The notes under the pieces: model-generated
What the model was told of the DNA's origin: nothing
What the model saw: only the letters and a program-made list of their open reading frames with translations
Databases searched by the model: none
Part shown: positions 17 through 36,792 of the stretch, in pieces
How positions within the stretch are numbered: position 1 is the stretch's first letter
Layout: each line of letters starts with the position of its first letter
Source of the DNA: an uncultured Bacilli bacterium
GTDB taxonomy: Bacteria > Bacillota_I > Bacilli_A > RF39 > UBA660
Length of the DNA: 64,000 nt
Direction of reading: 5' to 3'
Assembly (NCBI GenBank): GCA_947624955.1
Contig: CANQMM010000001.1
Span: 962-64,961 of the forward strand
Made by a program: the position numbers and the translations under genes

Positions 17-1225
17 ATGAGTAATAATAAAAAGAACAATTTATTCTCACAAATCCTCCATATGATATCCAATATCATTTCCTGGGTTTTATTAATCTTG
101 CTAGTTATTATTGCTGGTTTTTTATTATACTATTTTATAACTACCAATATATGTAAATCTAAAGGGGATACTTGTACTCCTAAAGTAACTTTATATACCA
201 TCGTTAGCCAGTCAATGGTTCCAACTATCAAAGTATATGATGTTATAGTTAATGTAACTCCAGAAACTAGTGACGAAATAGAAGTGGGGGATATTATTAC
301 CTTCCATTCTACTAGTAAGTTATATACGGAAAGAATTGTAACGCACCGCGTTATTGAAAAAAGAACTAATGAAGATGGTATTGTGGAATTTCGAACCCAA
401 GGGGATAATAATATAAGTCCTGATGATACCTTTGTCCCATATAGTAATATAATAGGTCGCGTAATCTTTAAAATTCCGCAATTAGGACGAATTCAATTTC
501 TTTTGACTAGTACCGGTGGATGGGTACTTATCATTATCATACCTGCTTTGTTTTTAGTCTTATTTGATGTTTTAAAACTTAAAAAGTTATTAACTGCTAA
601 AAATAAAGTAGCTACAGCATTAGAAGTTAAAGAAGATCAAAATATCCAAAGTCCGGAAGTTATTCTTGAACGCAAAGAACAATTGAAAAAGAAATTACTT
701 GATAGTGAAAACTTAAAATATCAAAAGGGCTATGGTGAACCAAGAGATTTTTATGAGTATCATCCTGAACGTTTAAAAGTGTTATATGAAACTCCTGAAT
801 ATCAAGGAGAAATGATATATAGTAATTTATCTGATGAAGAGATAGAAGCTAAGTTACAAGCAGCAGATTCCATTGAACAGGGCAATAATCCAATCGTTGA
901 AGAAACCCCTTCGTCTGAAGAAATCAATTATATTGAAGAACAATCAACATCCAATGCCAACCCTAACCTCGATGCTATCTTAAGTCGAATTAATGCATTA
1001 GAAACCCCAGTAGAAGAAGTCGAGTTACCTAAATTAATCTCTATTAAAGAAGAAGTAATTCCTGACGATATCGAATTACCAACAACTAATACTAAACAAC
1101 AAGTTGTAAATATCGAAGTTGCCAAAAAGAAAGATGGCAATGGACCACATAAAGTAGTAGGTCAAATAAAAAATAATAAACGTTCAAAAAACCGTAAAAA
1201 AAATAATCGGCGTAGAAAGCATTAA
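17..1225 (+). CDS. sipW: Signal peptidase I, SipW / archaeal-eukaryotic (S26B) type, with an unusual ~200-aa acidic C-terminal extension ending in a polybasic tail
   Basis: TM helix at res ~16-40; catalytic Ser motif SQSMVPT; His motif VTHRV (His in place of Lys, as in SipW/Sec11); second TM GGWVLIIIIPALFLVLF; extension res ~190-402 is Glu/Ile-rich and ends KNNKRSKNRKKNNRRRKH; purine-rich RBS before ATG at 17. Confidence 0.7.
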   Translation: MSNNKKNNLFSQILHMISNIISWVLLILLVIIAGFLLYYFITTNICKSKGDTCTPKVTLYTIVSQSMVPTIKVYDVIVNVTPETSDEIEVGDIITFHSTSKLYTERIVTHRVIEKRTNEDGIVEFRTQGDNNISPDDTFVPYSNIIGRVIFKIPQLGRIQFLLTSTGGWVLIIIIPALFLVLFDVLKLKKLLTAKNKVATALEVKEDQNIQSPEVILERKEQLKKKLLDSENLKYQKGYGEPRDFYEYHPERLKVLYETPEYQGEMIYSNLSDEEIEAKLQAADSIEQGNNPIVEETPSSEEINYIEEQSTSNANPNLDAILSRINALETPVEEVELPKLISIKEEVIPDDIELPTTNTKQQVVNIEVAKKKDGNGPHKVVGQIKNNKRSKNRKKNNRRRKH

Positions 1226-1298
1226 TTCAAATAATGCTTTCTTTTAAGTTATAAATATGCTAAAATGTAGTTAATATGAATAATAAGGATGTGAAATT

Positions 1299-3332
1299 AT
1301 GAATAATGATTCTAATAATGAAGAAATTTCACTAGAACAAACAGATAAAGAAATCAAAAAAACTAATCGTTCCTTAAGTCGTAAACAAATAGTTATGTTA
1401 GCAATTATCATAATTGTTATAATTATTTTGTTAATTAGTTGTACAGCTAAGAACTACTTTAAAACAGGTAATTTAAATATCGATTTAAATAATGATAATG
1501 TTTGTGATATAAACTGTGATACTGATAATGATAAAAGACCTGATGTCAACATTGATTTAGATGGAGATAATATTCCGGATTTAAATATTGATTATGGTCA
1601 CGATAATAAGCCTCATTTTAATATTGATACGGATAATGATGATATCCCTGATAAAAATCTTACTAATCAAGATTTAGATGGTGATGATATCTGCGATTTA
1701 AATTGTGATATTGATAATGATGGCTGGCCAGATATCAATATCGATATGGATGACAATGGTAAATGCGATATTAATTGTGATGATGGTACTAATGGCGGTC
1801 ATGCTAATGATAAAATCTGTGACCGTAATTGTGATGATGGCTCATTTAATGGCCAAGCATTTGATGGCGTCTGTGACCGCAACTGTGACGATGGCTCTAA
1901 CGGTGGCATTAAAGATGATAATAAGTGTGACCGTAATTGTGATGATGGTAGCTTCGGAGGAACCGCTGGCGATTATCTTTGCGACCGTAACTGTGATGAA
2001 GATAATAACGGCACTTGTGATAAAAACTGTGATGATGGCTCTAACGGTGGGAAACCAAATGATGGCATCTGCGATAGTGATTGTCAAAACCAAGTTTGTA
2101 TCAACTGCGACGATGGTAGCTTTGGTGGCAAACCAAATGACGGTATTTGTGATAAAAACTGTGACGATGGCAGCTTCGGTGGTGTAAAAGGTGATGGCAT
2201 CTGCGACCGTAACTGCGACGATGGTCGCTTCGGGGGTGCTCCTGATGATGGCAAATGTGATTACAATTGTGACGATGGCTCACTAGATGGAACCGCCGGT
2301 GACGGTACTTGCGATCGTAACTGTGATCTTAATCGCGATAATATATGTGAATTAAATTGTGACGATGGCCGCAATAACGGTAATGCTAGTGATGGTATTT
2401 GTGATTTTAACTGTGATAATGGGGCTTTTGGCGGAACCAAGAACGACGGTGTCTGCGATACCAATTGTGATGACGGTAGTTTCGGGGGAAATGCCAATGA
2501 TGGTGTTTGTGACCGCAACTGTGATAACGGGGCGAATGGCGGAAGACCAAATGACGGCATTTGCGATTACAACTGCGATGACGGAACTTTAGATGGTCAA
2601 GCTAATGATAATATTTGTGATCGTAACTGTGATGATGGTACAAACGGTGGCGTAGCAAATGATAATGTTTGTGACCGTAATTGTGACGATGGTAGTTATA
2701 CCGGCAAACCAAATGACGGTGTTTGCGACCGTAATTGTGACTCCGATAATGATGGTGTCTGTGATTATAACTGTGATGATGATAAAGATGGCTTATGTGA
2801 CCGTAATTGCGACACCAATGGTGACAATGTTTGTGACTTAAACTGTGATGATGACGGTGATAAAGTTTGTGACCGCAACTGTGATGATAACAAAGACGGT
2901 ATATGTGACCGCGAATGCGACGCTGATGCCGATATTGGAAAATTAAATATTGTCGACATTACTTCTGTAAATGCTCACGGCGTTATTCCTGGTTGGAAAG
3001 CAACTCAACAATTCACTGTTACTAATAGTGGTACGAAAACCCTACCTTTCCAATTAAGATGGGTCAATATTACTAATAATTTTGAACGTCCACAAGATTT
3101 AATCTATACGGTAACATCTACTCGCGATAACTTAAATACAATTCATTTCGAACGTAAACCATTACCAAGTACGGAAACTATTATTGTATCTGAACAAGTT
3201 ATTAAACCAGGAGAAACTATTACTTTTACAGTTGATTATGAATATATCTATTACCGTAATATCAATCAAAATATAGATCAAGGTAAGACTTTTAGAGGTA
3301 CAATTCAATTATTCCTAGAAGGTCAAAGATAA
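1299..3332 (+). CDS. Asp/Cys-rich tandem-repeat (thrombospondin type-3-like / EF-hand-like Ca-binding) cell-surface protein; N-terminal signal-anchor with lipobox-like LISC; C-terminal Ig-like domain
   Basis: RBS aaggatgtg before ATG; N-term charged region then TM IVMLAIIIIVIIILLISC; ~24 copies of a ~20-aa repeat CDRNCDDGS(F/N)GGxxxDGxCD; C-terminal ~130 aa with PGW..FTVTNSGT..L pattern typical of beta-sandwich surface domains; immediately downstream of sipW. Confidence 0.6.
   Translation: MNNDSNNEEISLEQTDKEIKKTNRSLSRKQIVMLAIIIIVIIILLISCTAKNYFKTGNLNIDLNNDNVCDINCDTDNDKRPDVNIDLDGDNIPDLNIDYGHDNKPHFNIDTDNDDIPDKNLTNQDLDGDDICDLNCDIDNDGWPDINIDMDDNGKCDINCDDGTNGGHANDKICDRNCDDGSFNGQAFDGVCDRNCDDGSNGGIKDDNKCDRNCDDGSFGGTAGDYLCDRNCDEDNNGTCDKNCDDGSNGGKPNDGICDSDCQNQVCINCDDGSFGGKPNDGICDKNCDDGSFGGVKGDGICDRNCDDGRFGGAPDDGKCDYNCDDGSLDGTAGDGTCDRNCDLNRDNICELNCDDGRNNGNASDGICDFNCDNGAFGGTKNDGVCDTNCDDGSFGGNANDGVCDRNCDNGANGGRPNDGICDYNCDDGTLDGQANDNICDRNCDDGTNGGVANDNVCDRNCDDGSYTGKPNDGVCDRNCDSDNDGVCDYNCDDDKDGLCDRNCDTNGDNVCDLNCDDDGDKVCDRNCDDNKDGICDRECDADADIGKLNIVDITSVNAHGVIPGWKATQQFTVTNSGTKTLPFQLRWVNITNNFERPQDLIYTVTSTRDNLNTIHFERKPLPSTETIIVSEQVIKPGETITFTVDYEYIYYRNINQNIDQGKTFRGTIQLFLEGQR
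1500..2935. repeat. Coding tandem repeat, ~60-nt period, ~24 units (inside CDS 1299..3332)
   Basis: Repeated tgtgaccgtaactgtgatgatggc... units seen directly in sequence; generates multiple shadow ORFs on both strands in the ORF track. Confidence 0.8.
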
Positions 3333-3373
3333 TAATTAAGTTTATTATCTTTTTTAATTTACCCAATAAAAAA

Positions 3374-3400
3374 AGCTAAATCATTATTTAGCCGTATTCT
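3374..3400. terminator. Bidirectional hairpin terminator (GCTAAAT-catt-ATTTAGC) flanked by A-run and T-run
   Basis: Perfect 7-bp inverted repeat with 4-nt loop; aaaaaa upstream and cgtattcttcttttt downstream; lies between convergent repeat-protein gene and a small minus-strand ORF. Confidence 0.4.
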
Positions 3401-3506
3401 TCTTTTTCTTTTGCATATTCTTATTAACAAGTTTAACTTTAACGCCTTTATATAATGCAAACTGTTTTTTTACTCCATCTGGTAAATTCTTTTTTAAAAC
3501 CTTCAT
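3384..3506 (-). CDS. Small basic protein (40 aa, MKVLKKNLPDGVKKQFALYKGVKVKLVNKNMQKKKKNTAK), hypothetical
   Basis: Not in ORF track (below length cutoff); strong RBS GAGGAGGTG 8 nt upstream of ATG; read from minus strand by eye; coordinates approximate. Confidence 0.3.
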   Translation of the reverse strand: MKVLKKNLPDGVKKQFALYKGVKVKLVNKNMQKKKKNTAK

Positions 3507-3640
3507 CGTTGCACCTCCTCATATATCGATTGAATTATATCACGAAAAGCAAAAAAGTGCTATATATAATTAATATATGTATTAAAATTCGTTAATTTCA
3601 AATAATGTTTAACGAGATTTGATTTGTAACAAAGGTGACC

Positions 3641-3669
3641 TTGTAAAAAATTCATTTTTATGTTATATT
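3641..3669 (+). promoter_or_regulatory. Sigma-A-like promoter: TTGTAA, 17-nt spacer, TATATT
   Basis: Hexamers and exact 17-nt spacing seen in sequence; drives a short structured transcript ending at the 3753..3788 terminator. Confidence 0.35.
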
Positions 3670-3675
3670 GAATAT

Positions 3676-3788
3676 GTCAAGGAAACTTGCATAAAATAAA
3701 AATGGAGCATTCAATATTTCCAACTGTTGAGTGCTATCAAATTAATGGTGAAACACCCTAATTCAGATGTTGAATTGGGTGTTTTTTT
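3676..3788 (+). ncRNA. Candidate small RNA or cis-regulatory leader (~110 nt) with internal stems and an intrinsic terminator
   Basis: Downstream of the promoter above. Local hairpin CAAG-GAAA-CTTG; long-range pairing ATATTGAAT / ATTCAATAT; ends in a 12-bp stem (ACACCC(T)AATTCA / TGAATTGGGTGT) plus TTTTTTT; no ORF of plausible size on this strand. Confidence 0.3.
3753..3788 (+). terminator. Strong intrinsic terminator (12-bp stem, 1-nt bulge, 5-nt loop, U7 tail)
   Basis: acaccctaattcagatgttgaattgggtgttttttt seen directly. Confidence 0.6.
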
Positions 3789-4051
3789 AGTTTAGTGTTA
3801 CGAAGAGTAACACAATAAGTAGAAAGATGATTATGAGCAAAGTTAAGACTTAAAAATCTTTCTTATTCATATCGCATCACCTCCAAATCTGTTTCAAGAT
3901 AAAGAGGTAACACCCAACATTATATTGAACATTCCATTAATTTTATATCTTATTTATGCAGCAATAACAAATTTTCTTTAATATTTGTGAATCTGTGTTA
4001 AATATAAAGAATTTTATTAAAAAATTTGATACAATAACATTGGTGGTATTA

Positions 4052-29624: not shown

Positions 29625-30419
29625 CTACTGCTTTTTAATAACTTTACTTTCTATATAAACGATTAATTTATATAAGATAAACGAAATAATAACTAATAAT
29701 AAAACTCCACTTATTACTAAATCCAAATTAAATATTTGTGTTCCGTAAATAATTAAATATCCAATACCTTTCCGGCTTACAAGAAATTCCCCCATCACAA
29801 CACCGATTAGGGACATTGATATGTTCAATTTAACTGCACTCATAATTGTTGGTAGACTACCAGGTAGTATTAAATACTTAAGTATTTGTATTTTATTTGC
29901 TTTAAAACTCTTCAAAAGTTTTAATTTAACTTTATCAATATTATAAAAACCATTTAGAATAGTTACAATGCTTACTATTAAATTAATTAGTAAAGCCATT
30001 ACGATAATTGTCCTTATATTAGCTCCAAACCAGATAATTAACATTGGACCTAACGCTACTTTAGGTAAAGAATTTAACATCGTTAAGAAAGGTTCTAATA
30101 CTTTATTGAGTAGTGGAAAAGAATACAATATTAGAGCAATAACTAAACCTAAAACTAAACCTAAACCAAAAGAAATAAATAACTCTATTAAAGTAGTATT
30201 TATATGGGATAATAAATCACCATTTTTTATTAATAATTTTAAAGTCTTAATACACGAACTAGGACTAGAAAAAATAAATGAATTAATAATCTGCTTTCTA
30301 CTTAATAATTCCCAAACTCCTAAAAATAAACCAATAATCAATAATTGAATCAGAAAAATAATAATTTTTTGCCTTTTTAATTTTTTAATAAAATTTCTTT
30401 GTTCATTAGATAAAGACAT
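29625..30419 (-). CDS. ABC transporter permease (NitT/TauT/SsuC-like binding-protein-dependent family)
   Basis: 6 TM; permease signature loop region; overlaps upstream ATPase gene (operon SBP-ATPase-permease on minus strand). Confidence 0.8.
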   Translation of the reverse strand: MSLSNEQRNFIKKLKRQKIIIFLIQLLIIGLFLGVWELLSRKQIINSFIFSSPSSCIKTLKLLIKNGDLLSHINTTLIELFISFGLGLVLGLVIALILYSFPLLNKVLEPFLTMLNSLPKVALGPMLIIWFGANIRTIIVMALLINLIVSIVTILNGFYNIDKVKLKLLKSFKANKIQILKYLILPGSLPTIMSAVKLNISMSLIGVVMGEFLVSRKGIGYLIIYGTQIFNLDLVISGVLLLVIISFILYKLIVYIESKVIKKQ

Positions 30420-31158
30420 CTAAATCCTGCCATATCTTATCATAATATATTGCAAATTCTTTACTTTTCCGATTATTAATAGGAGTTGACTTGTTACTAA
30501 GTTTAATTTCATATTCATTCTTTACTACGGCTGGTCTTTTAGAAAATACAATTATTCTATCCGCTAAACTGACGGCTTCCGCTAAATCATGGGTAACCAT
30601 AATCGCCGTTTTACCTTCTTTTTTGATGATTTTATAAACATCATCACTAACTGCTAAACGTGTTTGATAATCTAAAGCGGAAAAAGCTTCATCAAGTAAG
30701 ATAATATCCGGTTCAAGTACCAAAGTTCTAATTAAAGCACATCTCTGACGCATTCCTCCTGATAGACAAGATGGATACTTATCCTTAAACTCTAATAAAT
30801 CATAATTGCTTAATAATTCTAAAGCATAATCCTCTTTCTCTTTATTAAGTAACCCTTTAATCTTTAAACCTAATAGAACATTATCCCAAACCGTTAACCA
30901 AGGTAGTAAGGCATCCTCTTGCAGCATATAACCAATAGTTTTACCTTCTTTAATTTCAATCGACCCTTTGGTTTCCTTCTCCAATCCCGCTAAGATATTT
31001 AAAAGTGTACTTTTACCACATCCACTACTACCAACTATAGCGATGAATTCTCCTTCATTAACTTTTAATGAAACATCTTTAATAGCCACTACTTCTCCTA
31101 ATTTCGTATGATAATTCTTTCCTAAATTTTTAATTGTTAATATCTCATTCATAATCAA
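30406..31158 (-). CDS. ABC transporter ATP-binding protein (SsuB/TauB-like)
   Basis: Walker A GSSGCGKST; signature LSGGMRQRCALIRTL; Walker B ILLDEAFSALD. Confidence 0.9.
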   Translation of the reverse strand: MIMNEILTIKNLGKNYHTKLGEVVAIKDVSLKVNEGEFIAIVGSSGCGKSTLLNILAGLEKETKGSIEIKEGKTIGYMLQEDALLPWLTVWDNVLLGLKIKGLLNKEKEDYALELLSNYDLLEFKDKYPSCLSGGMRQRCALIRTLVLEPDIILLDEAFSALDYQTRLAVSDDVYKIIKKEGKTAIMVTHDLAEAVSLADRIIVFSKRPAVVKNEYEIKLSNKSTPINNRKSKEFAIYYDKIWQDLDVFI

Positions 31159-32131
31159 TATTTAAAACTAATTCATTATAAGGAACATATTCATTTATTA
31201 AATCTGCTTTTAACATAATGTCTTGAAGATTATTGAATGCTGTTTCCGTAATAGTAGTATCCGTAAACCAACTATCAGCATCCTTATATCTTTTGATAAT
31301 CGTTGCTATTTCATTGACACTAGAATCAGGGAATTGTGGTGCAATTACTTTAGCTACATCTTCTTCACTATTATTCATTGTAAATTCAATTCCTTTATTT
31401 AAAGCTTTTACAAATCTTTTAATTAAATCTTCATTATTTTCTAGATAACTTTTTCTAGCATTAAATGCGGTATAAGGTACTTCTCCGGATAATTTACCAA
31501 TACTTGCTACGACATAACCGAGTCCTTGACTTTCCAACTTCGTTGCATTTGGTTCAAATAGATTGACAAAGTCGCCCATACCGGCAATAAAACTACCGGA
31601 TAATGAAGCAAACTCTACACTTGTATTGATATCTATTTTCTTTTCGTCAATATCATTATTTTTTAAAGCATTTTGAAAATTTAAGATTGGCATTCCACCA
31701 ACTCTACCAGCTAGTACTTCTTTACCATATAGATCTTCTAGTTTAAAATCATCGATTTTTTCTCTAGAAACGATAAATTGCCCATCTCTTTTAGTTAAAC
31801 CGGCAAATGATACAATATAATCTTTTTCTCCACCATTATATACGTAGATGGAACTTTCCGGTCCGGCAAAGCCAATTTGGGCATCTCCTGATAATACAGC
31901 GGCACTTACTTTATCAGCTCCACTAGTTAATACTAAATCGATTTCTATTCCTTCATCTTCAAAATAACCGTTTTCGATTGCGGCATACCATGGCGCATAA
32001 AAAATGCTATGCGTAACTTCCGCTACCGTAACCTTTTCTAAATTTTGCGCTTCATCCTTCTTTAAGATGACAAAACAAATACCCACAATAATTAATAAAA
32101 ATACCATAATTAATAAACTTGTTTTTTTCAT
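31145..32131 (-). CDS. ABC transporter substrate-binding protein (NMT1/SsuA-like), signal-anchored
   Basis: N-terminal TM; periplasmic-binding-protein-like fold features; first gene of the minus-strand operon. Confidence 0.7.
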   Translation of the reverse strand: MKKTSLLIMVFLLIIVGICFVILKKDEAQNLEKVTVAEVTHSIFYAPWYAAIENGYFEDEGIEIDLVLTSGADKVSAAVLSGDAQIGFAGPESSIYVYNGGEKDYIVSFAGLTKRDGQFIVSREKIDDFKLEDLYGKEVLAGRVGGMPILNFQNALKNNDIDEKKIDINTSVEFASLSGSFIAGMGDFVNLFEPNATKLESQGLGYVVASIGKLSGEVPYTAFNARKSYLENNEDLIKRFVKALNKGIEFTMNNSEEDVAKVIAPQFPDSSVNEIATIIKRYKDADSWFTDTTITETAFNNLQDIMLKADLINEYVPYNELVLNIDYE

Positions 32132-32241
32132 AAAATCCTCCTTCTTATCTCTTTATTATATGAGTAAAAAAATTAAAAAGTTACCATTTACAATACCGCA
32201 ATTATTTGTTATAATTTTGAATATAATAGAGGAGTGGTAAG

Positions 32242-34281
32242 ATGGCAAATACATCTACATTAAGAAATGATCAAAGAAAACTTCTAGAACGTTTATATAA
32301 TCTTAAAAGTGACGATAGTGATGTTATAAGTAATATCCGGCAAAGCATTAGTGCCAATGAAGAAACAGGTCAAAGAATTCAAACCGAAAAAGAAGACTGT
32401 GAAAATCAAAAATCATCTAAAACCGATAGAAAAGTTCAAATTGAAAATCAATATCAAAAGTTTTTAGATGATTTAAAAGGCATCTCTAAAGATAGTTACA
32501 CTGTTCTTTTAGAAGAAGCTGAAGAAAGTTTTGACCCTGAGGCAATGCTTGAAAGAATCAAAGAAAGAATTCCTAAACGTTTAGAAGAAATAGAAACCTT
32601 AATCACTAGTTTAGAAGAGAAAATTGCTGCTAGTGAAAATGCTTTAAGTGAAAATAGCTTAACAGCTCAAGAATTAGAAGAAAAACTTGCTGATGCTGAA
32701 CGCGTACGCGCTGACTTAGCAAAACTAATTGACGAATCATTACACGGTAATGGTAGTATAACTCGTGATTCTGTCGAAGAAATTCTTGCTAAATTAGGAT
32801 TTAAAGAAGAAGAAATTATTGAGTTAGGTAAAATGATTCTTTTCCCACAAGGAACATTAGAATCTTTTGATGCCGAATATCAAGAAAGAAAAACTGAAGG
32901 TCACACAGTTCCCGAAATTTTAGGAGCTAGACCAGAAGAACCTACGGCTGAACCAACACCTGAATCTGAACCAATTAAAGTAGTTGGTAGTGAACCAACC
33001 GGAGCTGCAGAACCCAATACCACTCCCAGTGAAGATGCTTCTGTAGAGAAAGTTACTGAAACTCCAGAAACTGCGCCTGAAGCAGCCGACTATTCTGAAT
33101 TTTATGAACAAACTGGTATTCAACCCGGCTTCTTATCTGAACAAGCCGTAGCTGAATTATCAGCCGTTAATAAACCACAACTAATTAAAGAAAATTATGC
33201 TACGTTAACTAGTTTAGAAATCTCTGATACGAATATTAAAACCTACTATAGTGCATTAATCGATCCGGATTTAAATGGCAAAATTAAATTATTCCAAGAA
33301 CTAGGTAAAACTTCAATCGATATGAATTTAAATTTCCCAACTTTACTAGTATATAGTTTAGCTGACTTAGAAGAATTAAAAACTTTATGTGAAGAATCTG
33401 ATTTAAGTCTAGGTAATATTCCTTTAAATGTTTTAGGTAATGGCTTAACAGATTTCTTTGAAAACCTTGCTACACTATCTGGCAGTCATACAGAATTAGA
33501 TGGTAGTGAAGTAACTAAAAGAGCAGCTCTTTTAGCGACTGCTAGTTCACAATTTAAAAATAACTTAAATATGCTTAATAAATATGCTTATAGCTTGACT
33601 AAGAAAAATGGTAAAACAGCATTACAACCACTCGCTCAAGATAGTACAGAACTAGCCACCGGCTTAGATGCCGTTATCGAAACCGGAGAAGATCGGATAT
33701 TTGATAATGAACCGGATAAATTAGCAATTAACTTAATGGATTTAGCAAACCGTATTGCTTATTGTCATAAAAATGCTATTCCACTTTATAATGAAAGTGG
33801 TGCTCCTCATCACTTTATCTTCGATGAAGCAGAATTCGCTAAAGTCTTTGAACCATTAGATCCTGAGACGATTAAAGAAATTCCAACTGCTGAAGAAGCC
33901 CGAGGAAGTCTTCAAGAAACAACTAATAATTCTTCTCTAATAGACCTATTAGATAAAATGGATTTAACAACTTTATATGAAACGGGTCGCAATATTACTG
34001 ATGAAGAAGTATATTTTGGTCTTCAATCATATTTAGGACAACTTGCTGAGTATGAAAATGAAACTCACCGCGCTTACATTATCGATGGTGTTACCTTATC
34101 TAAAGAAAGAACGGAAAGAAACCTCGTTCAATTAATCAAGAATCCTACTGATGGTAAAGCTGAAGAAATTTTAGTGGTTGCTCTATTGTATGGTGCTTTA
34201 AAGTCTAAAGAAGATATGGTCAAGGTGGCAAACGCTATGGGTTTTAGTGAACCAAGTGTTGAAGGGAGTGTTAGATTATGA
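32242..34281 (+). CDS. Large cytoplasmic acidic protein (679 aa): N-terminal coiled coil, Pro/Glu/Thr-rich linker, ~400-aa C-terminal domain; hypothetical
   Basis: RBS gaggagtgg; promoter TTTACA-17-TATAAT upstream; no TM or signal peptide; no recognisable motifs. Confidence 0.55.
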   Translation: MANTSTLRNDQRKLLERLYNLKSDDSDVISNIRQSISANEETGQRIQTEKEDCENQKSSKTDRKVQIENQYQKFLDDLKGISKDSYTVLLEEAEESFDPEAMLERIKERIPKRLEEIETLITSLEEKIAASENALSENSLTAQELEEKLADAERVRADLAKLIDESLHGNGSITRDSVEEILAKLGFKEEEIIELGKMILFPQGTLESFDAEYQERKTEGHTVPEILGARPEEPTAEPTPESEPIKVVGSEPTGAAEPNTTPSEDASVEKVTETPETAPEAADYSEFYEQTGIQPGFLSEQAVAELSAVNKPQLIKENYATLTSLEISDTNIKTYYSALIDPDLNGKIKLFQELGKTSIDMNLNFPTLLVYSLADLEELKTLCEESDLSLGNIPLNVLGNGLTDFFENLATLSGSHTELDGSEVTKRAALLATASSQFKNNLNMLNKYAYSLTKKNGKTALQPLAQDSTELATGLDAVIETGEDRIFDNEPDKLAINLMDLANRIAYCHKNAIPLYNESGAPHHFIFDEAEFAKVFEPLDPETIKEIPTAEEARGSLQETTNNSSLIDLLDKMDLTTLYETGRNITDEEVYFGLQSYLGQLAEYENETHRAYIIDGVTLSKERTERNLVQLIKNPTDGKAEEILVVALLYGALKSKEDMVKVANAMGFSEPSVEGSVRL

Positions 34282-34565
34282 TGTTCTTATCTGAATTAGG
34301 ATTTGATAATTTACAAATTAAAGCGATTGAAAAAAATATTCCCAAACTAATAAAAGAGCAAATAAAAAATTCTCAAGAATTAGTTAAGATGAATATTTCC
34401 TTCCTTAAAGACTTGGGTGTTAAAAATTATCGGGAAGCTTTTAAATCTTATTATGATATGTTTTTAATGGATAATAGTTCATTTACTGCTATCTTTGCGA
34501 AATATGATCGTGATGATTTAATTGAAAAACTTGAAAAGAATATTGCTATAATTGAACATCTATAA
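34278..34565 (+). CDS. Small protein (95 aa) translationally coupled to 32242..34281, hypothetical
   Basis: ATGA start/stop overlap; GGGAGTG RBS inside upstream gene end. Confidence 0.45.
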   Translation: MMFLSELGFDNLQIKAIEKNIPKLIKEQIKNSQELVKMNISFLKDLGVKNYREAFKSYYDMFLMDNSSFTAIFAKYDRDDLIEKLEKNIAIIEHL

Positions 34566-34704
34566 AAAGGAGTAATTAATTTTATTCCTTTTTTAAGACT
34601 TTCAATTCAAACAAACGTATGCTATAATAAAAATGTAATAAACAATAAAAATAATATTCAAATAAAGTTTTATTTGGTATAATTTTTATGACAAGGTGGT
34701 AAAA

Positions 34705-36792
34705 ATGAACTATTTAGATGGATTAAATGAACAACAATTAAAAGCTGTAAATCATATTGATGGGCCGTGTCTAGTCCTTGCCGGAGCCGGTAGTGGTAAA
34801 ACGCGTGTTCTGACTACTCGTATCGCTAATCTTATTGACAATGGGATTTACGGTAGTCATATCTTAGCCATAACTTTTACTAATAAAGCCGCTAAAGAAA
34901 TGAAAGAACGTTTAAACAAACTTATCCCCGATAACAATGTTTTTGTGGGAACTTTTCACGCTCTAGGTGTTCGTATTATAAGAGAAAATTATAATTTATT
35001 AGAATTAGATAAGAACTTTACCATTCTCGATAGTGAAGATGTTTTAAGTGTAATTAAAAAAATTCTCAAAGAATTAGGTTATGATCCCAAACTAAATTCC
35101 CCAAGTTATATTCGTAATCGCATCAGTTTTATCAAAAATGAAATGCTTAGCGCCGGGGAAATTGCCAAATTTTTTAACACTCCTGCTGAAAAAGTTGCGG
35201 AGAAAGTTTATTATGAATATCAATCCGTCTTAGCTCGGAATAATTCTGTCGACTTTGATGATTTACTCGTTTTACCAGTTGAGTTATTTGCAAGTCATCC
35301 CGAAATCTTAGAAAAATATCAAGAACGTTATCGCTACATCCTTATCGATGAATACCAAGATACTAACGAGGTTCAATATAAATTTAGTAAATTACTCGCT
35401 AAAAAGTATCGTAATATTTTCGTCGTTGGTGACCCTGATCAATCTATCTATATGTTTCGGGGGGCGAACTTCCGGAATATCCTAAACTTTGAAAGTGATT
35501 ATCCCAGTTCCGAGATTATTCCCTTAGAAGAAAATTATCGTAGTACTAACTACATTTTAAAAGCTGCTAACTCCGTCATCAAAAATAATAAAGAACGGAA
35601 AGAGAAGAATTTGTTCTCCGCCAAAGGCGACGGCGTCAAAACCAAATATATCCGCGCTTACGATGGGAAACACGAAATAACTCTCGTTATTGAAGAAATT
35701 AAAAAATTACTTAATGAAGGTTTTAGCAAAAAAGATATTGGAGTTTTGTACCGGACCAATGCTCAATCCCGCTTACTCGAAGAAATGTTTATTAAAGCCA
35801 ATCTCCCTTATAAAGTAGTGGGTAGTTATTATTTCTATAATCGTAAAGAGGTCAAAGATTTACTAGCTTATTTACGCCTTATCCAAAATCATCACGACGA
35901 TATTAGTTTAAGAAGAGTCATAAATGTCCCTAAAAGAGGTATTGGCGCTTCAACTTTAACCAAACTAGAAACTATTGCTAAAGAGAATAATACCTCGATG
36001 TATGATGCGATTAGCGGCGGTAAAGAGCAAACTTTTAAAGACTTAATCGCCGAGATTACCCAAGAAAGTGAAAACATCTCTTTAACGGAGTTAATCGATT
36101 TAATTCTAGATAAGACCGGGATGCAAGCCGAGTTAGAAAACGAAAAGAGTTTAGAAAACGATCTACGTTTAGAATATTTGCAAGAATTTAAAAGCATCAC
36201 GGCTTCCTTTGAAGAACGTACCGGTAGTGTTAATTTAGCCGATTTTTTAGAAGAGGTCAGTTTAATTGCGGATATCTCTGACCATCAAGAAAGTGAAGAT
36301 GTCATAACTTTGATGACTCTCCATAGTGCCAAAGGCCTTGAGTTTGAAGCTGTATTCATCGTCGGTATGGAAGATGGCATCTTCCCCCACGCCAATGCCT
36401 TTTTAGAAGAAGGGGGCTTAGAAGAAGAGAGACGCTTGTGTTATGTTGGTATTACTAGAGCTAAACAAAGATTGTATATTAGTAATGCGAAAAGAAGAAT
36501 TCTCTATGGTAAAGAAACGATGAATCCTCCAAGTCGCTTTATCGATGAAATCGACTCTAACTTACTCGATGTCCAAAATGAATTAATGCAAGAACAACCC
36601 AAAGTCGATAAAGAAGCCATCTATACCAATACTGATGCTGAATACCAAAATGGTGATGTTGTAATGCACACTATCTATGGCCGCGGCGTTGTCATTGATA
36701 TGCAAAATGATTTAGTAACTATTGCTTTTGCCAAAAATTTTGGTATTCGCAAAGTAATGAAAAGTTATAAAGGTCTAAGAAAAATTTCATAA
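34705..36792 (+). CDS. pcrA: ATP-dependent DNA helicase PcrA (UvrD/Rep family)
   Basis: Walker A AGAGSGKTRVLT; UvrD helicase motifs through length; start at ATG after AAGGTGG; adjacent ligA as in many Firmicutes. Confidence 0.9.
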   Translation: MNYLDGLNEQQLKAVNHIDGPCLVLAGAGSGKTRVLTTRIANLIDNGIYGSHILAITFTNKAAKEMKERLNKLIPDNNVFVGTFHALGVRIIRENYNLLELDKNFTILDSEDVLSVIKKILKELGYDPKLNSPSYIRNRISFIKNEMLSAGEIAKFFNTPAEKVAEKVYYEYQSVLARNNSVDFDDLLVLPVELFASHPEILEKYQERYRYILIDEYQDTNEVQYKFSKLLAKKYRNIFVVGDPDQSIYMFRGANFRNILNFESDYPSSEIIPLEENYRSTNYILKAANSVIKNNKERKEKNLFSAKGDGVKTKYIRAYDGKHEITLVIEEIKKLLNEGFSKKDIGVLYRTNAQSRLLEEMFIKANLPYKVVGSYYFYNRKEVKDLLAYLRLIQNHHDDISLRRVINVPKRGIGASTLTKLETIAKENNTSMYDAISGGKEQTFKDLIAEITQESENISLTELIDLILDKTGMQAELENEKSLENDLRLEYLQEFKSITASFEERTGSVNLADFLEEVSLIADISDHQESEDVITLMTLHSAKGLEFEAVFIVGMEDGIFPHANAFLEEGGLEEERRLCYVGITRAKQRLYISNAKRRILYGKETMNPPSRFIDEIDSNLLDVQNELMQEQPKVDKEAIYTNTDAEYQNGDVVMHTIYGRGVVIDMQNDLVTIAFAKNFGIRKVMKSYKGLRKIS

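Follow-up and report, generated by a model that had tools for sequence, protein, structure and literature searches.

A stalked protein encoded beside a SipW-type peptidase as a candidate cell-tethered subunit of a TasA-like fibre system in uncultured gut Bacilli

Introduction

TasA polymerises by donor-strand exchange, whereby one subunit, with its N-terminal strand, completes the next one's sandwich (PMC9674648), and the SLH or LPXTG anchors encoded by bacterial AbpX loci have been predicted to attach to the fibre through strand complementation (bioRxiv 10.64898/2026.01.04.697558). The manner in which TasA-type fibres are fixed to the producing cell is unclear even in Bacillus, and the anchors of other lineages have been proposed from gene neighbourhoods only. 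Here we describe a gene for a 677-amino-acid (aa) protein that lies directly behind a gene for a SipW-type signal peptidase in a 64,000-nucleotide stretch of DNA from an uncultured, low-GC Bacilli bacterium of the gut (GenBank assembly GCA_947624955.1, contig CANQMM010000001.1, positions 962 to 64,961 of the forward strand), hereafter called the window. We propose that the gene encodes a large, cell-tethered terminal subunit of a SipW-dependent TasA-like fibre system, which joins the small subunits of the fibre by donor-strand complementation; in our judgement this proposal stands an even chance of being correct.

Architecture of the large protein and its TasA-like end domain

The open reading frame (ORF) of the initial annotation, 677 aa directly after sipW, was present as described, and the gene and its parts are as follows.

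1299 to 3332, forward strand: large-subunit gene, 677 aa, ATG start, stop codon included (ORF list)
1299 to 1388, forward strand: charged N-terminal region, predicted to be cytoplasmic, aa 1-30 (sequence)
1389 to 1448, forward strand: single hydrophobic helix (IVMLAIIIIVIIILLIS) with an S-C-T-A end, aa 31-50, hydropathy 3.42 over 19 aa
1470 to 1763, forward strand: irregular acidic repeats of the family type N-I-D-x-D-G-D-x-I-P-D with two CDxNCD motifs, aa 58-155 (sequence parse)
1764 to 2939, forward strand: CDxNC array of 24 units, aa 156-547, in which 15 units measure 18 aa, 7 measure 12 aa and two are irregular
2940 to 3329, forward strand: C-terminal jelly-roll domain, TasA-like in its modelled fold, aa 548-677, with a PGW...F-x-V-x-N motif and NQNIDQGKTF near its end

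The C-terminal ~130 aa had been described as a beta-sandwich within an architecture unlike that of TasA; the sandwich was borne out and the unlikeness was not. The AlphaFold2 (AF2) model of aa 541-677, for which an alignment of 28 C-terminal domains (A1) served as input, is an eight-strand beta-sandwich with pLDDT 85.2 and pTM 0.80, and a Foldseek search with this model placed TasA second by E-value (6e-4) with the highest TMq (0.60). Structure comparison of the end domain also returned other donor-strand subunits, namely CanX (7.9), the pilin domains of PapG and FimH (7.7-6.7), the bundling pilin 7ueg (6.5) and DUF1102 (6.4). The modelled domain is TasA-like at the level of the fold; its membership of the TasA family is argued from fold and context only, because the sequence comparisons with TasA were not significant. 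A search of the PDB with the A1 domain profile gave no match.

The context is provided by small secreted proteins of the same loci. When A1 was compared by hhalign with the 196-aa small neighbour of the large gene at locus L004, the probability was 96.1% (E 3e-9), and a profile of eight small subunits that includes the 219-aa protein of the window's own lineage (A4) aligned with A1 at 92.6% (E 4.6e-7), with small-subunit positions 59-218 falling onto domain positions 12-130. In the latter alignment the ~30 mature N-terminal residues of the small subunits had no counterpart in the end domain, and the large protein has repeat sequence where the small subunits have their donor-strand region.

The SipW-linked operon and its conservation

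The gene upstream of the large-subunit gene is listed below.

17 to 1225, forward strand: sipW-type (archaeal/ER-type) signal peptidase I, 402 aa

Its product scored 94.1 bits against TIGR02228 (cut-off 51.85) and is thus an archaeal/SipW-type signal peptidase I, as the initial annotation had it; against the Bacillus-specific SipW equivalog NF046067 it scored 80.6 bits, below the cut-off of 190. The catalytic core (aa ~15-203) lies between two transmembrane (TM) helices and is followed by a C-terminal extension of ~200 aa (aa 205-402, window 629-1222), presumably cytoplasmic, that is acidic at first and then very basic, ends in ...KNRKKNNRRRKH and has no match in Pfam. Extended SipW proteins of 350-406 aa were also encoded at L005-L009, L012 and L027, and most relatives are 211-226 aa long. 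Public assemblies hold a 100% identical SipW protein (P0121), the contigs of which reach upstream of the window. One of these sequences, contig L029 from an independent metagenome assembly, equals window nucleotides (nt) 1-2992 with 0 mismatches, thereby covering all repeats, and carries a gene for a 219-aa secreted TasA-like subunit ahead of sipW. Because this identical contig extends the window upstream, the operon order is small subunit (219 aa), sipW (17-1225) and large subunit (1299-3332).

The 219-aa protein starts with MEKRYTIYLVLIAVATILSGIVGASYA/FYSF... (slashes mark putative cleavage points) and carries PGWKG and DQS..MGHTF motifs. A word-index search with it found only itself, and its relatives were recovered from the loci. 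Among the eight small subunits, two matched the Pfam family Peptidase_M73 (camelysin/TasA; best E 5e-4), four weakly matched the SipW-type signal-peptide model TIGR04088 and one matched the BsaA model, all below threshold. As the end domain is homologous to small subunits that carry these SipW-type signal-peptide and M73 matches, the operon is a TasA-like system, in which a dedicated SipW and TasA-like subunits adjoin one another. It is the small subunits that are clear SipW substrates, and one of them is encoded just upstream of the window.

The arrangement was followed across 24 loci, which came from a pattern scan in which each GTDB species was represented by one genome and a narrow alignment of eight domain sequences served as query. 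All 24 belong to metagenome-assembled genomes (MAGs) whose labels read uncultured Bacilli, Tenericutes or "Mycoplasma sp. CAG:472", which we take to be members of the RF39 group. A SipW-type gene was found 10-110 bp downstream of the large gene at 22 of the 24 loci, and the two genes are equally close at L002-L004, whose contigs were reached through individual homologues. The closest relative, L032 (GCA_949282875.1), with a SipW that is 64% identical, has the order 216 aa, sipW, 914 aa, as in the lineage of the window. Small subunits share the cluster at eight loci (L004-L009, L015 and L032), in addition to the window's own lineage. The earlier placing of the gene in a SipW-linked fibre or matrix operon is upheld by this conserved neighbourhood. 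At L002 the pair of large gene and sipW lies just downstream of ftsE/ftsX and a gene for a PcsB-like M23 peptidase.

Family and distribution

Searching 5.8 billion proteins returned 387 homologues, the best of them 35% identical, all of which are unnamed or "hypothetical" and derive from MAGs of gut and rumen Bacilli/Firmicutes. A charged N-terminal region, one hydrophobic helix, acidic repeats and the same ~130-aa domain at the extreme C-terminus were shared by 117 of the top 120, and the 677-aa protein is, judged by its sequence, a member of an unannotated family with a constant three-module build. The literature search found no paper on this family or on TasA-like systems in these gut Bacilli.

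The domain itself is more widespread. The window protein matched the domain hidden Markov model (HMM) at 7e-37, and a profile search of 1.84 billion cluster representatives returned 2655 proteins when the limit was E <= 1e-3 and 1317 when it was E <= 1e-10, in three builds: a signal peptide followed by the domain in small proteins of 150-230 aa, an N-terminal domain followed by extensions (up to 5625 aa in total), and a C-terminal domain as in the window protein. Very long extensions are found in the N-terminal-domain proteins P0366 (5625 aa), P0359 (4388 aa) and P0287 (1679 aa), and genes of this build also occur at L013 (274-2232) and L016 (627-2240 and 5100-6692). The long proteins with an N-terminal domain may belong to fibres of this same kind, as tip or adhesin subunits.

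The N-terminal helix

One N-terminal hydrophobic helix was present in 117 of 117 homologues. The region before the helix is bimodal in length across the family, at 20-60 aa or at 80-140 aa, the latter in about half of the members. The long regions of the members read (P0001, P0003, P0076 and P0093, aa 1-100; ...LKEFILLD...IYLPKSLKV...) look like a shared cytoplasmic domain. None of the family's N-terminal regions matched Pfam, RsgI_N included, and a role as an RsgI-like anti-sigma factor, with a cytoplasmic N-domain, a TM helix and a CBM3-like sensor, was dropped for want of RsgI_N or any other Pfam domain there.

At the end of the helix, the 677-aa protein has the sequence LISC (aa 45-48), which overlaps the site where relatives carry a cleavage-type motif of the form [GA][ST][YF][SAT]. 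In the wider form [AGSV][ST][YFW][SAT], the motif closes the helix of relatives as, for example, ILGASYS/AVNY and VVSYS/TVYHY. Such sites lie at aa ~125-135 of P0093 and aa ~56-66 of P0027 and are often followed by an aromatic strand-like stretch such as TVYHYREY. The motif is degenerate in the window protein (S-C-T-A) and in L032 (G-I-K-T). TIGR04088 did not match the window large protein, nor did it belong to the families with matches to most of the 50 TM segments of the family that were tested.

The repeat stalk

Between the helix and the end domain lies a stalk of ~500 aa with 54 Cys, which is highly acidic (142 acidic against 51 basic residues), in agreement with the first description. 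The whole protein has a pI of 4.05 and consists of 19.8% D, 13.6% N, 11.4% G and 8.1% C. The motif C[DE]x[NDE]C occurs 26 times in it, or 27 times with one C-I-N-C, whereas 2000 composition-preserving shuffles gave 0.34 on average and never more than 3. The Cys-Cys spacing is 4 in 26 cases, 14 in 16 cases and 8 in 7 cases. The repeats reported initially are thus real, while their stated form, ~24 near-identical units of 20 aa, needs correction: the units are of 18 or 12 aa, the figure of 20 having arisen because the 18-mer was counted together with the CD of the next unit, and their mean pairwise identity is 63% in protein and DNA alike. The 15 regular 18-aa copies have the consensus C-D-x-N-C-D-[DN]-G-x-x-G-G-x-x-x-D-G-x with seven invariant positions, and the seven 12-aa copies have C-D-x-N-C-D-x-D-x-D-G-x. 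One of the two irregular units is of 26 aa and the other, the last, runs into the C-terminal domain. Since the units are only 63% identical, with a longest exact DNA repeat of 23 bp, the array is old and short reads should assemble it.

The repeats of most homologues are Cys-poor D-x-N-I-D-x-D-G-x-P-D units, among which a few C-D-x-N-C-D motifs stand isolated. The 18-aa Cys-rich unit was seen in none of the homologues read, which carry 0-14 CDxNC motifs, and it appears to be a lineage-specific form. In the 914-aa protein of L032, 10 CDxNC motifs accompany about 60 Cys-poor D-x-N-I-D-x-D-G-D-G-K-P-D repeats. As the homologues differ in the stalk and keep both ends, the stalk turns over quickly. 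The Cys count of the ectodomain is even in 114 of 117 homologues, which points to pairing by disulfides or shared metal ions.

The proposed kinship of the units with EF-hand or TSP3 loops did not survive comparison with Pfam models of TSP3, EF-hand, dockerin and Calx-beta, none of which matched at E <= 1 with the whole protein or at E <= 10 with aa 156-476. Matches of the 677-aa protein to NCBIfam were compositional only (SD-repeat adhesins, far below cut-offs), and neither the whole protein nor 202 aa of its stalk had a sequence match in the PDB. Loops of the form D-x-[DN]-x-[DN]-G number three by a strict and ten by a relaxed definition in the whole protein, most of them in the 12-aa units and in the family-type repeats near the N-terminus. 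By analogy, the stalk would most simply be read as a calcium-stiffened, Cys-stapled spacer.

ORFs of 56-160 aa overlap the array in other frames (1705-2187 on the forward strand, 1842-2960 on the reverse strand), and the G+C content is 44-45% in the array against 25-32% in its flanks, both owing to the Asp/Gly/Cys codon content of the repeats. The short overlapping ORFs, such as 1705-2187, were rejected as genes and regarded as by-products of repeat composition.

Proposed role and alternative explanations

In the proposed mechanism, the large subunit would insert N-in/C-out through its single helix and stay tethered as an uncleaved signal anchor, or less likely be lipidated at Cys48, and its stalk would bind Ca2+, pair its Cys by disulfides or shared metal ions and act as a stiff, highly charged spacer that holds the end domain away from the membrane. 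SipW would cut the small subunits and free their aromatic N-terminal strand (A/FYSF...), which would enter the end domain. This domain, having none of the ~30 N-terminal residues whose TasA counterpart is the donor strand, would serve as a strand acceptor only, and the large subunit would form the cell-proximal end of the fibre as its anchor or nucleator. The position at a fibre end follows the logic of the FimH and PapG pilin domains, because the end domain looks like an acceptor without a donor; that end would be the cell-proximal one because the N-terminus of the protein is in or on the membrane.

Tethering is favoured by the strong helix (hydropathy 3.4), its presence in every homologue, the long pre-TM regions and the silence of TIGR04088. 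For the window gene we rank it first, as a call that is close to evenly balanced, because the cleavage motif is eroded here and in L032 and TIGR04088 does not match. By the same model and the A4/A1 alignment, the large protein shows neither a match to a SipW-type signal peptide nor a counterpart of the small subunits' donor-strand region.

Several observations weigh against this role. On the side of the fold, CBM3a came first in the Foldseek search, the match to TasA is a moderate one and beta-sandwiches are common; Peptidase_M73 (PF12389) did not match aa 541-677 at E <= 10, and hhalign against B. subtilis TasA, with a TasA sequence confirmed as identical to 8aur, gave only 12% for A1 and 1.5% for A4. 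On the side of the stalk, the 18-aa unit has the shifted form D-x-N-C-D-D-G in place of the canonical DxDxDG, an AF2 model of four 18-aa units, made with the protein's own repeat blocks as alignment, gave no usable geometry (pLDDT 53, pTM 0.29), and Ca2+ binding is presumed for a sequence that no calcium-binding family model matches. The nucleator of B. subtilis, TapA, donates a strand and does not accept one (PMC10151520).

The remaining objections concern cleavage and the neighbourhood, and they are also what speaks for the strongest alternative, namely that the large protein is itself a SipW substrate, cut after S-C-T (~aa 49/50) and released as an acidic protein. The aromatic N-terminus so exposed (AKNYFK... 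here; TIYxY or AVNY in relatives) would then be a donor and the C-terminal domain an acceptor, and the protein would form a long-link matrix by polymerising with copies of itself or with small subunits, which comes close to the view of the initial annotation. The motif [AGSV][ST][YFW][SAT] closes the TM helix in 36 of 83 non-redundant members as compared with 2.4 in shuffles (maximum 8), and it has the same form as GATFA/YF and GASYA/FY of small subunits and GGTWA/AF of TasA, so that many large proteins of the family may be cleaved by SipW instead of being anchored. Moreover, at 16 of the 24 loci the large gene and sipW stand with no small subunit within 10 kb, and the constancy of the pairing even there fits the large protein itself as the SipW substrate. 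These loci are the following.

No small subunit within 10 kb: L002, L010-L012, L014, L017-L026, L028

In the model for BsaA, the signal peptide holds the subunits until strand exchange and SipW cuts later (PMC11580942), a sequence of events that counts in favour of this alternative. For the window protein, this explanation is possible and rather doubtful: its motif and that of L032 are degenerate, the curated TIGR04088 model does not match it and is not one of the families found in most of the family TM segments tested, N-terminal regions of 30-140 aa are atypical of cleaved signal peptides, and the operon of its lineage contains a small subunit as a clear substrate. The initial proposal of a SipW substrate is unproven for this protein. 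Presence of the motif does not cleanly separate the loci with small subunits from those without. For the family members that have a cleavage motif or no small subunit nearby, SipW cleavage, perhaps with head-to-tail self-assembly, is a serious alternative.

A stand-alone surface adhesin would be a second alternative, in which a CBM3-like or Ig-like domain on the acidic stalk binds a ligand or carbohydrate outside any fibre and the adjacent sipW serves only the export of other proteins. Sub-threshold Pfam matches of the end domain to Ig-like families (e.g. HYDIN/VesB-like, E 2e-4) are in its favour, but we consider it improbable, as the domain is homologous to the small secreted proteins with SipW-type signal peptides of the same operons and also forms the stand-alone 150-230-aa subunits found by the profile search, a build of fibre subunits. 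It also seems improbable, to much the same extent, that the protein is not a passive anchor but a self-linking matrix unit in which a ~500-aa metal-loaded stalk with paired Cys keeps a SipW-freed aromatic donor apart from the protein's own acceptor domain, the 18-aa unit being a new metal-binding (Cys2/Asp) repeat and not a disulfide-stapled calcium loop. If so, head-to-tail chains or cross-linked small-subunit fibres would give a mesh responsive to calcium or redox state.

Least probable is a lipid tether, in which LISC is a lipobox and Lgt and Lsp yield a lipoprotein starting at Cys48: L-I-S-C does fit the pattern [LVI][ASTVI][GAS]C, LIGC occupies the equivalent site in the large proteins of L005-L009 (e.g. 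L005 7646-10357; canonical L-I-G-C-C in the 898-903-aa relatives of L005-L007 and L009) and related genomes encode ordinary lipoproteins (e.g. L002 5256-5945 with LLCGC), but a lipobox-like motif is found in only 3 of 117 homologues, L032 has L-I-G-I, a Cys at residue 48 after a charged n-region of 30 aa is late for a lipoprotein signal peptide, and Cys48 aligns with the Tyr of the S-Y-S motif of relatives. The lipobox-like anchor of the earlier description thus stands as a membrane segment and falls as a family lipobox, and we regard lipidation as a less likely, minor variant of tethering by the helix.

Operon signals, assembly support and flanking sequence

Signals around the two window genes of the operon were as follows.

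1285 to 1289, forward strand: ribosome-binding site AAGGA, 9 nt 5' of the ATG at 1299 (sequence inspection)
1214 to 1242, forward strand: hairpin over the sipW stop codon, then a U-run (terminator-like scan; RNA fold)
3325 to 3355, forward strand: A/U-rich hairpin of 11 pairs followed by U6, beginning 5 nt ahead of the stop codon of the large gene and spanning it (sequence)

The first hairpin has a folding free energy (dG) of -11.8 kcal/mol (z -4.2) and was equalled by 0 of 200 shuffles; it may be a partial terminator or attenuator that limits read-through from sipW into the large-subunit gene. The second (dG -8.8 kcal/mol, z -3.0) is likely the operon terminator. Both fit a single transcription unit with a possible internal attenuator, as signals at the level of consensus only.

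The exact 677-aa sequence was not found in a collection of 15 billion proteins. Two further public short-read assemblies of the same organism break within the array: L030 departs from the window at nt 2276, which results in a false 343-aa product, and L031, which differs by one base at nt 2119 (Ser to Asn), ends at nt 2140.

The 660 bp 3' of the gene (3333-3994) contain no ORF of at least 50 aa and had no Pfam match, and Rfam returned nothing significant on the window or on this spacer. A further hairpin lies within it at 3757-3779. On its reverse strand are two ORFs with strong Shine-Dalgarno sequences, a Lys-rich one of 40 aa (3384-3506; GGAGGTG) and one of 6 codons (3850-3870). In L032 the fibre operon directly adjoins an ABC-transporter/NMT1 cluster and a UvrD helicase gene. 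A run of ORFs at window 29625-36792, ~26 kb from the fibre operon, resembles L032 4773-11795 in sizes and order (matched by size only); if these are the same genes, the operon occupies a different chromosomal position in the two genomes.

Significance

The family presents a simple case of the anchoring problem, with a membrane helix and a TasA-like, acceptor-type domain on one polypeptide beside a dedicated peptidase at 22 of 24 loci. Its hosts are abundant, uncultured gut Bacilli, for which our literature search found no description of TasA-type surface structures. The differences in the stalk, from ~60 Cys-poor repeats in L032 to 27 Cys-rich units here, amount to a natural experiment on what a spacer needs. 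As the family is nameless in every library searched, genome annotation would gain from its description.

Comparison with known systems

Thrombospondin type-3 and DxDxDG loops are short, rich in Asp, Asn and Gly and have paired Cys; the units of the window protein can be likened to them, and the 12-aa form has the canonical D-x-D-x-D-G. The 18-aa unit differs by its D-x-N-C-D-D-G, in which the Gly is shifted by one, and by a Gly-rich insertion of 6 residues, and the units of the window protein are spaced C-x3-C internally and have no sequence relative in the PDB. FimH and PapG of chaperone-usher pili sit at the distal tip, carry a lectin domain and depend for their assembly on a chaperone and usher of the Gram-negative envelope, unlike the protein described here with its putative N-terminal membrane tether.

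Like the AbpX loci, the window encodes an accessory protein that would pair a fibre-type domain with a cell-surface anchor. In AbpX loci, however, the anchor is a wall-binding SLH or sortase LPXTG module in place of an N-terminal TM helix, calcium sites belong to the fibre subunit instead of a repeat stalk, and the associated peptidase has ten TM helices; the peptidase of the window is of the SipW type, for which we assume two TM helices flanking the catalytic core. TafF1 and TafF2, proposed as membrane anchors of the haloarchaeal Tafi bundling pili (the anchor role itself being only proposed), differ from our protein in being archaeal and Tat-exported, and their paper mentions no repeat stalk between helix and domain. 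Anchoring in TasA-superfamily loci is, as a general idea, already published, and the build of membrane helix, Asp/Cys-rich stalk and TasA-like end domain has not yet been described for bacteria.

The closest likeness is with tapA-sipW-tasA of Bacillus subtilis. Both operons have three genes, the middle one for a SipW-type peptidase and the outer ones for a small and a larger partner, the small subunits of these loci have SipW-type signal peptides and are expected to assemble by donor strands (PMC9674648), TasA (A/AFND) and these small subunits alike start with aromatic residues when mature, and the jelly roll of the end domain has the TasA fibre as its best PDB match, although neither TasA nor PF12389 matches it significantly in sequence. 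TapA, a secreted protein of ~250 aa with a complete Ig fold, gives its N-terminal strand to TasA (PMC10151520), and models of TapA in Pfam and NCBIfam did not match the 677-aa protein. Unlike TapA, the accessory protein of this operon has a TM helix, then an acidic, Cys-rich stalk of 500 aa, and at its C-terminus a TasA-like domain.

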